Sequence record: PZ445456.1
From: a phage
Length of the DNA: 39,315 bases
Strand: one strand, 5' to 3'
The notes under the pieces were generated by a model, which saw only the letters and a program-made list of their open reading frames with translations, was not told the origin of the DNA and made no database searches. The position numbers were made by a program, and so were the translations under genes. The first letter of the stretch is position 1; the number at the start of each line of letters is the position of its first letter. Positions 35,301 to 38,869 of this stretch are shown here, piece after piece.

Positions 35301-36313
35301 GCTCTCCGTTCACTAAGTTCCTAAATGGTACTTCCAACTACATTCTGGACATGGCCCGTCAAGGTGTCATGGGAGATGTGGTAACTCATGCCATTACAGG
35401 TAAGGGTGCCAACAAGTGGATTAAAGGAGACATGCTGAAATCTGCGAGTATCTCTAAGGAACAGTGGGAAGGCATTCAGAACCTCATCCGTGAGAACGTC
35501 ACTCAAGGTGCTGACGGCAAGTACACCTTCAAGGACAAGCGTAAGCTGGCTAATGACCCGCGAGCTATGGACCTGTGGCGACTGGCTGATAAGGTAGCTG
35601 ATGAAACAATGCTGAGACCACACAAGGTGTCCTTACAGGATTCCCATGCGTTTGGTGCTCCTGCTAAGTTGGTCCTTCAGTTCAAGTCTTTCGTAATCAA
35701 GTCGATGAACTCTAAGTTTATCCGCTCCGGTAACGAAGCCTTTAAGAACCATCGTGCTATGGACATGGCGCTGACCTATGCTATCTCTGGTGGCATTGCT
35801 GGCTCCTACTATGTTGCACAGGCTCACTTGAAAGCTGCTGGTCTTCCTAAAGAGCAACAGAAGGACTACTTGAAGAAAGCCCTTGACCCTAAGATGATTG
35901 CCTATGCTGCTGCGTCCCGAAGTTCACACCTTGGGTCGCCTCTGAGTATCGCAAACTTCGCTATGGGCGCTGCTGGTTATGACCAAGGTCTCATGGTCCG
36001 CTCTACGATTCTCCCGAAAGGTGAGGACAAGCGGGAACGGAACAAGGCGGTAACTTCTCGTGACATGAGTGACTCCATTATGGGTGCATTAGGTGAACAG
36101 ATTCCTGCTCTTGGATTCGCCGGGGCAACCTTTGCTGCTGGTCGAAATGCTTATGGTGTCCTTACGGCTCCTAACAAAGTGACCGAGCGTGAGATGATGA
36201 CTGGTCTGATGAACGCTCATCGTGAGATGGTTCCGAACGACCCAATCACTCAACAGATGCTCATTAAGTTCTATGAGGCTAACGGTGTTCACCTTAAGTC
36301 TGACAAGAAGTAA
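32366..36313 (+). CDS. 16: Internal virion protein D with N-terminal lytic transglycosylase domain, 1315 aa; GTG start
   Basis: N-terminus MDKYNPNEPHEYDALFQQAAD.HGVSYGLLRKVGWVESRF.PTA.S.TGP.GVMQFTKAT...ALAYNQGEG matches T7 gp16; GTG at 32366 preceded by RBS GGAGG. Confidence 0.93.
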   Translation: MDKYNPNEPHEYDALFQQAADTHGVSYGLLRKVGWVESRFKPTAQSPTGPRGVMQFTKATGQAYGLQSDEDFNDPAKSIDAGARYLADLVKKYNGDELKAALAYNQGEGRNGKPQLEAYDSGNFAGIGDEGRNYLRSLLDVAKSPKSGDIESFGGITPKGKGIPFDAAMSGIGKKGKVTTELPESHSMSFQGKEQAAPNQPFGKDYWEAKGTTLDEANERSTFFGFGNAAEAELSNSTLGVAFRAGKRDNGFDVVTDVLQPTRFNSHIWSPEELERIRNEVKNPAYMNVVLGGSSENLDELIKLANENYELDAKAADAGLGAKLSAGIIGAGVDPLTYVPIAGTAANGFKLVNKALIVGAQAGALNVASEGLRTSVAGGDAHYAEAALAGMLFAGGLTAIADGVAAGLRKSGAEQIENPFAAAQMRFEARETARNTGGHDASRMPPSEDRVFSQHNGVEYSPLETEPGAVVLRDGSIISDTNLANPMTAKEFAEVDPERAAWGLPMRGLSEIGLRTLRSEHAEIRGLAKDLVRSPTGMESGSHGKFGATASDIKERLHSTNQRTYNDLYDAMKEAMADPEWSVGMFKRGAQGARQEIYRRAAIAIERPELQANLTKAERKVMDIMKEHFDLKREMMENPAMFGNKATSIFPNSRHKGTYVPHVYSREAKQLYSQALGGSDGLQEAIAASWMTSYRARPEVKARVDEHLAETLGIDPKSVTEEMVMKHARDKAYGIAKTDEFNSSSVIDDNIEGLVGIENNSFLEARNLFDSDMPVTLPNGQQFSVNDLRDFDMKHVMPAYDRRVDGDIAIMGGTGKTTAELKDSIMALDKKSEGKGTMKGEVEALKDTVKILTGRARRNQDTMGDTMVRALSDMSFFTKNAYMGLQNLTEISGLLAKGNTRAMLHGIPALRDLAFRNKPVSGKELKELHSMVFGKEFDDLIRPTRQDIIQRLRESTDTPDVAAKVVGTVKHTTQELAARSPFTKFLNGTSNYILDMARQGVMGDVVTHAITGKGANKWIKGDMLKSASISKEQWEGIQNLIRENVTQGADGKYTFKDKRKLANDPRAMDLWRLADKVADETMLRPHKVSLQDSHAFGAPAKLVLQFKSFVIKSMNSKFIRSGNEAFKNHRAMDMALTYAISGGIAGSYYVAQAHLKAAGLPKEQQKDYLKKALDPKMIAYAAASRSSHLGSPLSIANFAMGAAGYDQGLMVRSTILPKGEDKRERNKAVTSRDMSDSIMGALGEQIPALGFAGATFAAGRNAYGVLTAPNKVTEREMMTGLMNAHREMVPNDPITQQMLIKFYEANGVHLKSDKK

Positions 36314-36314
36314 T

Positions 36315-36337
36315 CAATACGACTCACTATTGGGAAG
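36315..36337 (+). promoter_or_regulatory. Phage RNAP promoter (phi17-equivalent)
   Basis: CAATACGACTCACTATTGGGAAG followed by leader hairpin GGGAAGG..CTTCCC. Confidence 0.7.
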
Positions 36338-36383
36338 GCTCACACAGCTTCCCTTCTATTATACCCAACTAAGGAGGTACATT

Positions 36384-38258
36384 ATGGCTCTCAAGATTCG
36401 TACCGTAATGACTTATCCGCTAACAGGTGCTGTGGACTTTGCAATCACCTTTGAATACTTAGCGCGTAAGTTCGTGACGGTAACTCTAATTGGTAAAGAC
36501 CGTAAGGAACTGGTTCTCAATCAGGACTATCGGTTCACCACTAAGACACAAATCACTACAACACGCACGTGGACGGCGGCTGACGGATATGACTCTATTG
36601 AGATTCGTCGATACACCTCCGCGACTGACCGTCTGGTTGACTTTGCTGATGGCTCAATCCTTCGTGCATATGACCTAAACATCGCACAGATTCAAACGCT
36701 TCACGTTGCTGAAGAAGCACGAGACCTCACTGCGGATACCATTGGTGTCAACAACGAGGGTCACTTGGATGCGCGTGGTCGACGCATCGTCAATGTAGCT
36801 AACCCTATAGATGATGGCGATGCAGTCAACCTGCGCTCTATCAAGCAGTGGAACGACTCCGCTCTTAACTCTGCAAACAGGGCAAAGGCTTCCGAGGAAG
36901 AAGCAAAGCGACAGACTGATTGGGCCGGACGTATGCGCAATGAGTCAGAACAGTTCCGTAACGAGGCCAATCAACACCGAGCGGTGGCTGAGTCTGCCAA
37001 GGACCAAGCAATTACCGCTAAGAATCAAGCTGAATCGGCAAGAGACCTCGCTTCAGGTTCTCGGAGTGAAGCATCAAGGTTCGCTGAAGAGTCCAACCAG
37101 TATATGTCACGGTCTAAGCAATGGGCTGTCAACCCGGTAGATGTTGTAGTCACAGATGGTGAATACTCCGCGAAGCACTGGCAGCATCATTCTAAGGTTG
37201 AGGCCGACCGCTCGAAGAGAGAGGCTGACCGAGCAACCACTGAGGCTGACAAGCTGGGAAACATGAACGCACTTGCAGGTGCCATTGAGGAAGTAAGTCC
37301 AGACCACGTTGTTTCATGGTCGGCTACAGCTAAGTTTAAAGGTGAACTCATTGCCAACCGCTCAATGACTCTTCGTGCAGCGGATGAACAGGGTGCTATG
37401 GGACAGATGGTTCACGAATATGACGACACAGTCGGACGTCATGTCTCGAATACCTATTGGGCCATCAAGCACCCACATAGAGGAGAATGGCATGTTCCCT
37501 ATAAGATTCTAAACCTACCTAACGATTCTGCGGCGTGGGAGATGCACTTCGGGGACTTAATGCGTTGTTATAATGGATTGAAGGTCGAAGGGTTTAATAA
37601 ATCACTAGATGTAACCAATCAGGCGAATACTGCCGTTCGAACGGTGGCATATGGTCCGGGCGATTTGACCCAAGGGGCGTGGGTGTGTAACACTCGTTGG
37701 AACTTCTACGATTCAGGGTTAGAAATTGGATGGGTTCGAGGTGGTTCTACGAACGGCAACGGCCTAATCCGGTGGAAGCCGGAAGGAACTCAAGCGACAT
37801 ATCATGATATTTGGCTAAACCCGGGCGGTGTGGTGCAGTTCCCCGAGAAGATTCTCGTAGGGGCGGGTGGTGCCTCCGTTGGTGTTGATGGTAATATTGA
37901 TGGCTCACTTTGGGGTGGTAATCTATACGGCTGGCTGAACAACCGCTTAGGTGATCGACCAACGTTTGCTCAAGGAGACGGGCGCTATGTTCGAAAGAGT
38001 GCTGGTTGGGCTGAAGTATGGAGTGGTTCCGCTGGTGGTGGGGTATCCGTAGGTCTCAATCAGGATGTCCGCTGGAGAACTATCTGGATTCAAACTCAAG
38101 GCAGATGGAACCCTGTTCAGATTGGGGACGATGGGGCTTACTATATCTCGTCTATGGGTGGGTGGCTACAGTTCACAATCTCAGACAACGGGAGAACTTT
38201 CCGTAACGATGCAGACAGAAGCTCTGTTCCTACGAGAATCTTGGTTCAAACCCAATAA
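36384..38258 (+). CDS. 17: Tail fiber protein, 624 aa
   Basis: N-terminus (TV.TY.L.G...F.I.FEYLARKFV.VTLIG.DRK.L..N.DYRF...T...T..W..ADGY..IE.RR.TS.TDRLVDF.DGSILRAYDLN.AQIQT.HVAEEARDLT.DTIGVNN.GHLDARGRRIVN) and C-terminal tip (W..VWSGSAGGGVSV) match T7 gp17; central region divergent; internal ATG 36384 with RBS AAGGAGG. Confidence 0.93.
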   Translation: MALKIRTVMTYPLTGAVDFAITFEYLARKFVTVTLIGKDRKELVLNQDYRFTTKTQITTTRTWTAADGYDSIEIRRYTSATDRLVDFADGSILRAYDLNIAQIQTLHVAEEARDLTADTIGVNNEGHLDARGRRIVNVANPIDDGDAVNLRSIKQWNDSALNSANRAKASEEEAKRQTDWAGRMRNESEQFRNEANQHRAVAESAKDQAITAKNQAESARDLASGSRSEASRFAEESNQYMSRSKQWAVNPVDVVVTDGEYSAKHWQHHSKVEADRSKREADRATTEADKLGNMNALAGAIEEVSPDHVVSWSATAKFKGELIANRSMTLRAADEQGAMGQMVHEYDDTVGRHVSNTYWAIKHPHRGEWHVPYKILNLPNDSAAWEMHFGDLMRCYNGLKVEGFNKSLDVTNQANTAVRTVAYGPGDLTQGAWVCNTRWNFYDSGLEIGWVRGGSTNGNGLIRWKPEGTQATYHDIWLNPGGVVQFPEKILVGAGGASVGVDGNIDGSLWGGNLYGWLNNRLGDRPTFAQGDGRYVRKSAGWAEVWSGSAGGGVSVGLNQDVRWRTIWIQTQGRWNPVQIGDDGAYYISSMGGWLQFTISDNGRTFRNDADRSSVPTRILVQTQ

Positions 38259-38302: not shown

Positions 38303-38509
38303 ATGCTGTCATTAGATTTTAATAACGAGGTAGTGAAGGCTGCACCGATTGTAGGGACAGGGGTAGCCGATGGCGCTGCCCGTCTGTTCTTCGGGCTGTC
38401 ACTTAACGAGTGGTTCTATGTAGCCGCAATTGCCTACACAGTGGCTCAAATTGGTGCCAAGGTAGTCGATGTGATTATCAAATGGAAGAAGGAGGGCAAA
38501 GATGTCTAA
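38303..38509 (+). CDS. 17.5: Holin (class II), 68 aa
   Basis: MLSLDFNNE..KAAPIVGTGVAD..ARLFFGLSLNEWFYVAAIAYTV.QIGAKVVD matches T7 gp17.5. Confidence 0.88.
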   Translation: MLSLDFNNEVVKAAPIVGTGVADGAARLFFGLSLNEWFYVAAIAYTVAQIGAKVVDVIIKWKKEGKDV

Positions 38510-38775: not shown

Positions 38776-38820
38776 ATAACTCAAGGCCACTACATCTAGT
38801 GGTCTTTATGATATTTCAAC
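38776..38820 (+). promoter_or_regulatory. RNase III-type hairpin upstream of gene 18.5 (R18.5-like)
   Basis: ATAACTCAAGGCCACTACATCTAGTGGTCTTTATGAT; stem AAGGCCACTA/TAGTGGTCTT with one G-U; same AACTCAAGG..CCTT architecture as the R1.1-type copies. Confidence 0.45.
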
Positions 38821-38869
38821 ACAACTCACGGTAACGCTACGTGAAATCTGAAAATACGGGAGGGTAGTT

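Follow-up and report, generated by a model that had tools for sequence, protein, structure and literature searches.

The lateral fibre of phage T7, gp17, is represented by solved structures of the tip with the pyramid (PDB 4A0T/4A0U) and of the anchor (7BOZ/7EY9/8DSP), and its specificity has been shown experimentally to map to the exterior loops of the C-terminal tip (Huss 2021, PMC8043750). That a fibre can be longer and diverge in its pyramid region while the tip stays conserved is already described for phage Sxt1 (PMC11680406). For the Berlinvirus ErnstBeyeler (Bas67), the receptor entered is rough LPS (PMC8594841 S5 Table), and the efficiency of plating (EOP, the plaque count relative to the wild-type host) was 0.0014-0.014 on an rfaC deletion and 0.07-0.2 on an rfaG deletion (Maffei 2021 S1 Data, PMC8594841). 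The corresponding values for T7 were at most 4e-6 and 4e-5 to 3.6e-4, and CarlSpitteler (Bas68) reached 0.0004-0.017 on the rfaG deletion (PMC8594841). Moreover, Bas67 forms zero plaques on O16-restored K-12 but plates on E. coli B (PMC8594841), and its plaquing is published to rise on O-antigen-deficient clinical and UTI89 mutants. Assignment of the 'Bas68' phenotypes to ErnstBeyeler was rejected, as the original tables use Bas67 and the two names are interchanged in the legend of one 2026 preprint.

Here we analysed the fibre gene in a phage DNA of 39,315 nucleotides (PZ445456.1; this whole stretch is called the window, and coordinates refer to it). In our assessment, gene 17 of ErnstBeyeler most probably encodes a recombinant lateral fibre with an acquired middle and a T7-type tip that binds LPS and needs no chaperone.

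Gene 17 and the segments of its product

Gene 17 runs from ATG to TAA at 36384..38258 (624 codons plus stop) on the plus strand, as do all features given below. Its product has the same sequence (100% identity) as the tail fibre annotated for Escherichia phage ErnstBeyeler (Bas67, MZ501064), and PHROG 4242 (tail fiber) matches it over the full length (E 8e-191). A sequence-only reading of this locus had set its proposal of domain exchange against uniform similarity to a single known fibre; such similarity was found only with ErnstBeyeler's own GenBank entry, beyond which the best full-length relative has 48% identity. Outside gene 17, the genome aligns at ~94% identity with the Berlinviruses CarlSpitteler, PhiV-1, Carena and JSS1.

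The surroundings of the gene follow an order common to T7 and T3, in which gene 16 (an internal virion protein with transglycosylase, here ending at 36313) is followed by a promoter, gene 17 and holin gene 17.5. The promoter for the phage RNA polymerase at 36316..36335 is an exact match to AATACGACTCACTATTGGGA and the equivalent of T7 phi17, which occupies the same place; 12 sites of this type occur in the window, all on the plus strand, against 0 expected by chance. A Shine-Dalgarno sequence, AAGGAGG, was read off at 36371..36377, 6 nt 5' of the ATG, and the holin gene lies directly 3' of gene 17 at 38303..38509 (PF10746, E 3e-31). The fibre stop codon is separated from the start of the holin gene by 44 nt, which hold no tfa or Caudo_TAP ORF; the fibre genes of EmilieLinder and of P0006, whose fibre shares the middle but has another tip type, each have a Caudo_TAP/Tfa gene directly downstream. 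A scan for sigma-70 promoters and terminators around gene 17 gave nothing above shuffled expectation. Gene 17 is an ordinary T7-type tail-fibre gene, the sole oddity of which is a swapped middle third with the T7-like tip kept.

The N-terminal tail-attachment (anchor) domain, aa 1-150 (36384..36833), is recognised by PF03906, the T7 tail fibre N-terminal domain, on aa 1-154 (E 6e-50, 169 bits vs a cutoff of 25), and the cryo-EM chains 7boz, 7ey9 and 8dsp align with it. This domain is 73% identical to T7, 97% to Kvp1 and 100% to JSS1, and thus the first ~150 residues are T7-like as had been proposed. In a Pfam search with the whole protein the anchor was the only domain found, with a YadA_stalk match too weak to pass its cutoff. 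The anchor is followed by a coiled-coil proximal shaft of Kvp1/JSS1 type, aa 151-285 (36834..37238), assigned from the AF2 model and from identity (best 87%, to P0027; 27% to T7); the AF2 monomer has helices at 150-249 and 263-300, and at aa ~250-262 the shaft is broken by a short beta element. The hinge, aa 286-305 (37239..37298), begins with EADKLGNMNALAGAI (aa 286-300) and is nearly invariant across T7-like fibres: E287, A288, K290, L291 and N295 each reach a conservation of 90% or more among 120 fibres, and the hinge is 65-90% identical to each comparator, whatever the types of the flanking modules.

The distal half starts with a beta-rich middle cassette, here called mid_b, aa 306-493 (37299..37862). 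It is followed, at aa 494-526 (37863..37961), by the end of a pyramid-like region and a short alpha-helical connector (WLNNRLGDRPTF), placed by alignment to T7 434-464; the AF2 helix spans 514-522, and the connector is of the short P0003 type, 14 aa less than in BA14 and CarlSpitteler. The tip, aa 527-624 (37962..38255), is an eight-strand beta-sandwich of T7 type according to HMMER, Foldseek and the AF2 model (pLDDT 93-97). It is 49% identical to T7, 91-92% to BA14 and P0039, and 89-92% to those of CarlSpitteler and BA14, Berlinviruses that likewise infect K-12. PF13884, the Peptidase_S74 intramolecular chaperone, has no match at its C-terminus, and was found in P0027.

With 624 aa vs 553 aa, the fibre exceeds T7 gp17 by 71 aa, close to the ~70 aa of the earlier estimate. 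Against the solved T7 chains, HMMER aligns aa 1-323 to T7 1-297 (E 1e-73) and aa 494-623 to T7 434-552 (E 5e-27). In the first of these alignments the shaft is joined to the anchor, and the shaft's contribution to the score carries a compositional bias. Identity to T7 is 65% in the hinge and 34% in the pre-tip patch with the connector, and the 20% of the middle core comes from a forced alignment, i.e. is noise. Profile-profile comparison (hhalign) still aligns aa 480-520 to T7 422-461 with a probability of 94%. As far as such comparisons reach, the stretch with no detectable sequence relation to T7 is aa ~306-479 (T7 281-421). The unrelated middle had been placed at aa ~200-560, which is too wide, since a T7-like coiled-coil shaft, the hinge and the alignable 480-520 region fall within it.

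Conservation at the C-terminus was likewise anticipated, but for the extreme motif; it extends over the whole tip domain plus the connector (~100-130 aa), within which the motif VWSGSAGGGVSV occupies aa 545-556 (38016-38051). The tip matches 4a0t/4a0u with E 2e-27 in phmmer and E 1e-14 in Foldseek, and the Foldseek alignment of the full-length AF2 model to 4A0U has 231 columns; a structural relation to the T7 pyramid beyond aa 480-520 is thus conceivable. The Pfam families for the tip (PF12604) and the pyramid (PF20744, T7 residues 371-464) match T7 gp17 and not the ErnstBeyeler fibre; for PF20744, E was 2e-40 with T7 and nothing was found at E up to 1 with ErnstBeyeler. Due to the lack of a PF12604 match, homology of the tip is argued from pairwise HMMER and Foldseek matches and from the AF2 model.

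The middle cassette and its crossover zones

The domain-wise alignment against known fibres that the sequence-only reading had called for gave a mosaic of three fibre lineages, and the domain exchange it suggested is borne out by the segment identities and by sharp nucleotide breakpoints. The proteins with the best identities (up to 100% for the anchor, 87% for the shaft, 84% for the middle and 92% for the tip) fall into three sets without overlap. Judged from these alignments, gene 17 reads as a clean mosaic of a JSS1/Kvp1-type anchor and shaft, an EmilieLinder-type middle and a BA14-type tip.

Identities in 30-nt windows place the 5' crossover zone at gene nt 841-900 (37224..37283), where identity to the P0003-type backbone (contig L008) drops from 0.8-0.9 to 0.3-0.5 and identity to the P0006-type donor (contig L007) climbs from 0.27-0.43 to 0.8-0.87. 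Similarity to JSS1 stops at gene nt 893, and that to EmilieLinder starts at gene nt 816. The 3' crossover zone, gene nt 1501-1560 (37884..37943), encodes the conserved patch DGNIDGSLWGGNLYGWL; here identity falls from 0.87 to 0.33 for L007 and increases from 0.17-0.57 to 0.93 for L008, and the two contigs have in common a 62-nt patch of 79% identity. At the protein level the 3' junction is directly after GWL, and similarity to EmilieLinder/Mu-type fibres stops at aa 518. Over longer spans, L008 has 90% identity as far as nt 906 and, from nt 1504 on, 87%, and L007 has 80% over nt 858-1559. JSS1 follows at 93.5% identity between gene 16 and gene nt 893, shows no relation after that point, and is back at 96% from 38273. 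The reading frame is unbroken across both junctions. Because no donor is closer than ~80-87% at the nucleotide level, either the exchange is old or the true parents are unsampled.

The cassette shares 78-84% identity with P0004-P0014 and 71% with EmilieLinder Gp59. It stands where T7 has residues ~281-433, which form the distal half-fibre's proximal part and take in most of the pyramid domain. A full-length protein search gave 26 other carriers of mid_b. Among the top matches, 25 of the 27 carriers have a chaperone-dependent (Tfa-dependent) tip, the distant P0064 has an untyped one, and the T7-type tip occurs in a single carrier, the ErnstBeyeler fibre; elsewhere in this sample mid_b is thus coupled to a Tfa-dependent tip. 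A second combination of mid_b with a T7-type tip was absent from the databases searched, with tip-only matches in IMG/VR and zero in JGI metagenome contigs. In an exhaustive phmmer search of 1.84 billion representatives, mid_b matched 2 clusters only. Both are T7-like fibres, hence an origin of mid_b in myovirus or prophage fibres is not supported.

Pfam has no match on mid_b. In the full-length AF2 model the cassette has about ten strands (pLDDT 55-86), and the matches of this model in the PDB and BFVD are all T7-like fibres. An AF2 monomer of aa 301-530, built with 27 homologues, had a mean pLDDT of 59 and gave nothing below E 0.5 in Foldseek against the PDB. Given the poor model and the missing Foldseek match, a mainly structural role of mid_b (spacer or geometry) is taken as the default reading rather than as a result.

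Origin of the mosaic and recognition of the host

In the proposed model, aa 1-150 would dock the fibre on the tail, and the coiled-coil shaft (151-285) would lead into the conserved hinge (286-305), after which the distal half would consist of the beta-rich middle (306-493), the short helical connector and the T7-type beta-sandwich tip (527-624). The fibre would be a homotrimer by analogy with T7, the tip is presumably its LPS-binding part, and it would bind the rough LPS core of E. coli with no separate chaperone. The recipient would have been a Berlinvirus fibre with a P0003-like backbone, in which an anchor and shaft of Kvp1/JSS1 type were combined with a tip of T7/BA14 type. Into this fibre, a middle cassette of ~600 nt would have come from the lineage represented by EmilieLinder and P0004-P0026, by double crossover, once in the hinge and once in the DGNI..WGG..GWL patch, both of which are short and conserved. 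We infer both the direction and the mechanism of this exchange.

The published EOPs, which already supply the kind of LPS-core-mutant check that the sequence-only reading had asked for, indicate that Bas67 belongs to the receptor class of T7, a rough LPS core shielded by O-antigen, with a much weaker need for an intact core. Specificity had been expected to differ from T7; this holds for the degree of core dependence and not for the class. The same reading had taken the pattern as host-range switching by exchange, of which the exchange is present, but the exchanged piece is internal and the tip, which determines specificity in T7, was kept. That receptor-binding regions were exchanged so that the fibre was re-targeted to a non-T7 receptor is very unlikely, and largely contradicted already by the published plating data: large parts of the fibre are indeed unrelated to T7, and plating on LPS-core mutants differs ~1000-fold, but a homologue of the T7 receptor-binding tip is kept with an identical BC loop, and Bas67, like T7, needs a rough core, is blocked by O-antigen and infects both K-12 and B. 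As for an assembly chimera or a laboratory recombinant in place of a natural gene, the module combination is a singleton in all collections searched, but we find this explanation almost inconceivable, since the frame is intact at junctions that lie in conserved patches, a co-cultured or co-sequenced phage would give donor segments of ~100% rather than 80-87%, and the genome came from a plaque-purified isolate sequenced at 271x, of a phage that several laboratories have propagated and used.

The remaining alternative concerns the cassette itself. If mid_b were a second receptor-binding (glycan-binding) module, the cassette swap and not the tip loops would explain the weak dependence on the LPS outer core. 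The slot from hinge to pre-tip takes unrelated modules (mid_a, mid_b, mid_c and others), as host-interaction surfaces usually do, and mid_b is found elsewhere in fibres of the O16-dependent EmilieLinder. Moreover, Bas67 plates 10-20 times better than CarlSpitteler on the rfaG deletion despite tips that are 89% identical, with different middles, which makes a role of the middle conceivable. However, the two tips differ at three specificity-relevant exterior-loop positions (equivalents of T7 475, 520 and 542) that could alone account for this gap, and EOP also reflects steps beyond fibre binding. The cassette has neither a lectin, CBM or enzyme signature nor a structural match by Pfam, Foldseek or phmmer, and Bas67 carries it yet never plates on O16-restored K-12. 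We therefore regard a second binding module as unlikely, and retain the recombinant fibre with its LPS-binding T7-type tip as the preferred explanation.

For biology at large the recombinant fibre changes little, as the gene was already annotated and the receptor class already published. Phage engineering gains, in the two crossover patches (aa ~281-300 and ~501-520), splice points already validated in nature at which middles or tips of T7-like fibres can be swapped. Bas67 and Bas68, with near-identical tips, different middles and a 10-20-fold gap on the rfaG deletion, are a ready system for studying whether the fibre outside the tip takes part in host recognition. It is possible, though on balance doubtful, that the distal half of T7-like fibres is a three-slot combinatorial system (shaft, middle and tip) exchanged via the two conserved linker patches. 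If so, ErnstBeyeler would be natural proof that mid_b folds and works with a self-folding T7-type tip and no chaperone gene; in the boldest version, mid_b may be an accessory glycan-binding site behind the tolerance of Bas67 to truncation of the LPS core.

Comparison with known fibres

T7 gp17 resembles the ErnstBeyeler fibre in its PF03906 anchor, coiled-coil shaft, hinge, helical connector and eight-strand tip, and sits in the same genomic slot between gene 16 with the phi17 promoter and holin gene 17.5. In the tip, the BC loop SGSAGGG is identical, whereas the DE loop of ErnstBeyeler is one residue shorter and has an Arg, the HI loop is ADRSSV instead of ADSRSV, and position 520 is Met instead of Asp. 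Both phages depend on rough LPS, but ErnstBeyeler tolerates the rfaG and rfaC deletions far better.

The gp17 of BA14, CarlSpitteler and the Sxt1 type share the genus backbone, the K-12 rough-LPS phenotype, a tip of 89-92% and an anchor of 85-86% identity, and differ in having another shaft type (33%), the unrelated middle mid_c and 14 aa more in the connector. Kvp1, JSS1 and JSS2 are closest in the proximal half (anchor 97-100%, shaft 77-79%), with nucleotide similarity that is unbroken from gene 16 to the hinge and is back again after the stop codon. Their distal halves differ entirely: that of Kvp1 has a T7-like middle and a chaperone-dependent tip, and JSS1-like gp17 ends in a Peptidase_S74 intramolecular chaperone domain.

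The middle is shared with EmilieLinder (Bas103) Gp59 and the metagenomic P0002 and P0004-P0026, in which mid_b is 66-84% identical (~75-80% at the nucleotide level) and flanked by the same hinge and DGNI..WGG patch. These fibres end in a Mu-like tip of ~65 aa (NTVNHIAMGG...QRFNIY), followed by a Caudo_TAP/Tfa gene; this tip is absent from ErnstBeyeler, whose tip segment is 15-16% identical to EmilieLinder/Mu-type tips. Furthermore, EmilieLinder needs the O16 O-antigen by which Bas67 is blocked. The best model of the recipient backbone is P0003, a metagenomic Berlinvirus (Logan SRR8771451 contig, L008), which has an anchor of 97%, a shaft of 71% and a tip of 82% identity, the short connector and no tfa gene, with 87-90% nucleotide identity on either side of the cassette, and differs in carrying a T7/Kvp1-like, mid_a-related middle where Bas67 has mid_b.

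The fibre gene and its neighbours

The fibre gene (gene 17, window 36384..38258, + strand) encodes 624 aa from an ATG located 6 bases after AAGGAGG, and a phage-RNA-polymerase promoter, AATACGACTCACTATTGGGA (36316-36335, + strand), lies directly upstream of it, just past the gene 16 stop. When the window was scanned for this T7-like promoter core with <=3 mismatches allowed, 12 copies were found, 12/12 on the + strand against 0 expected by chance, with further sites at 2296, 8424, 24530 and 28975, among others. Downstream, a T7-family holin gene (PF10746; 38303-38509, + strand) is followed by the small terminase subunit gene, and T7 and T3 have the same gene order around the fibre gene.

The fibre protein is 100% identical to the database entry 'tail fiber protein [Escherichia phage ErnstBeyeler]', and outside the fibre the genome has ~94% identity to the Berlinviruses CarlSpitteler, PhiV-1, Carena and JSS1. 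The gene is already annotated and its receptor class already published: the original BASEL tables list ErnstBeyeler as Bas67 (MZ501064) with receptor 'rough LPS', and CarlSpitteler as Bas68 (PMC8594841), the prefix carried by the CarlSpitteler GenBank locus tags (bas68_). A 2026 bioRxiv figure legend (10.64898/2026.06.25.734514) exchanges the two names, an inconsistency in the literature; phenotypes published under 'Bas68' should not be attributed to the window. Among related contigs, L008, which carries the metagenomic fibre P0003, has an Endonuclease_7 gene (PF02945; L008 4965-5336) between genes 18 and 18.5, absent from the window (~38819-38840) and probably a homing-endonuclease insertion. 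Another T7-like fibre, P0100, is on a 39.7-kb contig labelled 'Staphylococcus hyicus' at NCBI, most likely because coliphage DNA contaminated the assembly.

Comparison with T7 gp17 and predicted structure

The sequence-only reading described a fibre longer than T7 gp17 and conserved at both ends. The excess is 71 aa, and in searches of solved structures aa 1-323 aligned with T7 gp17 1-297 (E 1e-73) and aa 494-623 with T7 434-552, the crystallised region (4A0T/4A0U; E 5e-27), so that both ends hold. Identity to T7 is 73% in the anchor (aa 1-150), 27% in the shaft (aa 151-285), 65% in the hinge (aa 286-305), 20% in the middle core (aa 306-479), where the alignment is forced and the value is noise, 34% in the pre-tip patch and connector (aa 480-526) and 49% in the tip (aa 527-624). 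When the middle regions of the two fibres were compared profile to profile, the one correspondence detected was that of aa 480-520 to T7 422-461. By these two measures the T7-unrelated region, previously placed at aa 200-560, shrinks to aa ~306-479, and what is conserved at the C-terminus is the whole tip domain rather than a single motif.

The sole Pfam domain is the T7 tail-fibre N-terminal domain (aa 1-154, E 6e-50); the pyramid (PF20744) and tip (PF12604) models do not match the ErnstBeyeler fibre, although both match T7 gp17. Because PF12604 gives no match, tip homology rests on pairwise HMMER, the AF2 model and Foldseek, which aligned this model to 4A0U with E 1e-14. The full-length AF2 monomer (mean pLDDT 72) begins with the anchor, continues with a helix at 150-249, a small beta element (aa ~250-262), a second helix at 263-300, a beta-rich stretch at 301-510 (pLDDT 55-86) and a helix at 514-522, and ends in an eight-strand tip (pLDDT 93-97). 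The beta element, AVNPVDVVVTDGEYSAKHW (window 37131-37187, aa ~250-268), sits within the predicted coiled-coil shaft and is shared by Kvp1/JSS1-type shafts, whereas T7 and BA14-type shafts lack it. Modelled alone, aa 301-530 gave a poor pLDDT of 59, and no structural neighbour was found for this model. Poor monomer models are to be expected for interdigitated trimeric folds. For the related Sxt1 fibre, its authors reported the same difficulty (PMC11680406). The distal half of the fibre gene (37450-38200) has a G-over-C strand skew of 0.20-0.27, compared with <=~0.1 in the flanks, which probably reflects Gly/Trp-rich coding content.

Mosaic structure and breakpoints

In the phage collection searched, from which the ErnstBeyeler record MZ501064 is apparently missing, no DNA-level match covered 80% of the fibre gene, and among 5.8 billion protein clusters the best full-length match besides the fibre itself had 48% identity. 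Segment by segment, the best matches come from three different fibre sets: JSS1 (100%) and JSS1-like metagenomic fibres (98.7%) for the anchor, with the JSS1-like P0027 (87%) for the shaft; the metagenomic fibres P0004-P0014 (556-558 aa; 78-84%) for the middle, which also has 71% identity to EmilieLinder Gp59; and P0039 and BA14 (91-92%) for the tip.

At the DNA level, JSS1 matches at 93.5% from gene 16 to gene nt 893 (counted from the ATG), is then unrelated, and matches at 96% again from window 38273. The Berlinvirus contig L008 matches at 90% to gene nt 906 and at 87% from nt 1504 on, and the match of L007, the contig with fibre P0006, is limited to nt 858-1559 (80%). Identity switches reciprocally, in 30-nt windows, at gene nt 841-900 (37224-37283) and nt 1501-1560 (37884-37943), and both zones are codons of conserved patches: the hinge EADKLGNMNALAGAI, nearly invariant among 120 fibres, and DGNIDGSLWGGNLYGWL, which the two putative parents have in common as a 62-nt stretch of 79% identity. 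The simplest history would be a double crossover by which a P0003-like Berlinvirus fibre gene gained a middle cassette of ~600 nt, and we infer this direction of exchange. Since the closest sampled donor reaches only ~80-87%, either some time has passed since the exchange or sampling has missed the parents. Along the connector and tip (37884-38255), the best DNA match is L008 at gene nt 1546-1680 and nasanit at 1681-1860; this alternation hints at a finer patchwork, but the identity differences are small (80-90%; 0.8-0.95 per 45-nt window) and too weak for calling a further crossover.

When the 121 best fibres were typed against reference modules, 27 carried the same middle type (mid_b, aa 306-493 here). 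A ~65-aa Mu-like tip (NTVNHIAMGG...QRFNIY) follows it in 25 of them and an untyped tip in the distant P0064, and only ErnstBeyeler joins it to a T7-type tip. No second such junction was found in IMG/VR or JGI metagenome contigs. In EmilieLinder and L007 the Mu-like-tip fibre is followed by a Caudo_TAP/Tfa chaperone gene; no such gene lies downstream of the fibre in ErnstBeyeler or P0003, where the holin comes directly next. With the cassette as query, exhaustive phmmer over 1.84 billion cluster representatives returned 2 clusters, both T7-like fibres; the cassette is thus a fibre-specific module of narrow distribution.

Tip loops, receptor class and known fibres

Deep mutational scanning placed T7 host specificity in the exterior tip loops BC, DE, FG and HI, and gain of function on truncated LPS came mostly from added positive charge, e.g. 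G521R/H, A539R, S541K and N501H (PMC8043750). The BC loop SGSAGGG is identical in T7 and ErnstBeyeler, while the DE loop is QGR instead of ANNS, thus one residue shorter and with an Arg, and Met and Arg occupy the positions of T7 D520 and S541. Between the CarlSpitteler and ErnstBeyeler tips, three loop positions differ, those equivalent to T7 475, 520 and 542.

In the published plating data (PMC8594841), EOP on the rfaC and rfaG deletions was 0.0014-0.014 and 0.07-0.2 for Bas67, 0.0016-0.004 and 0.0004-0.017 for CarlSpitteler, and <=4e-6 and 4e-5 to 3.6e-4 for T7. Bas67 gave zero plaques on O16-restored K-12, plated fully on the wecB deletion, and grew on E. coli B, not on UTI89, CFT073, 55989 or Salmonella (PMC8594841); in independent work it plaqued better on UTI89 and clinical mutants without O-antigen. 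The receptor class is therefore that of T7, with much less need for an intact core, and the extra basic residues in the Bas67 tip loops are consistent with this reduced need. Either the three loop differences or the unlike middle modules could account for the 10-20-fold gap between Bas67 and CarlSpitteler on the rfaG deletion.

Thus, of the host-range switching by domain exchange proposed from sequence, the exchange is supported by the mosaic and the switching is not, as the known specificity determinant was spared and the receptor class is unchanged. That gp17 fibres are modular and recombine is well known. The published account of Sxt1 (PMC11680406) already describes a Berlinvirus-type fibre that is longer than that of T7, diverges in the pyramid region and has a conserved tip. 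To this the ErnstBeyeler fibre adds the exact anatomy of a swapped internal cassette, its junctions mapped, and the sole sampled case of a mid_b cassette joined to a chaperone-independent tip.
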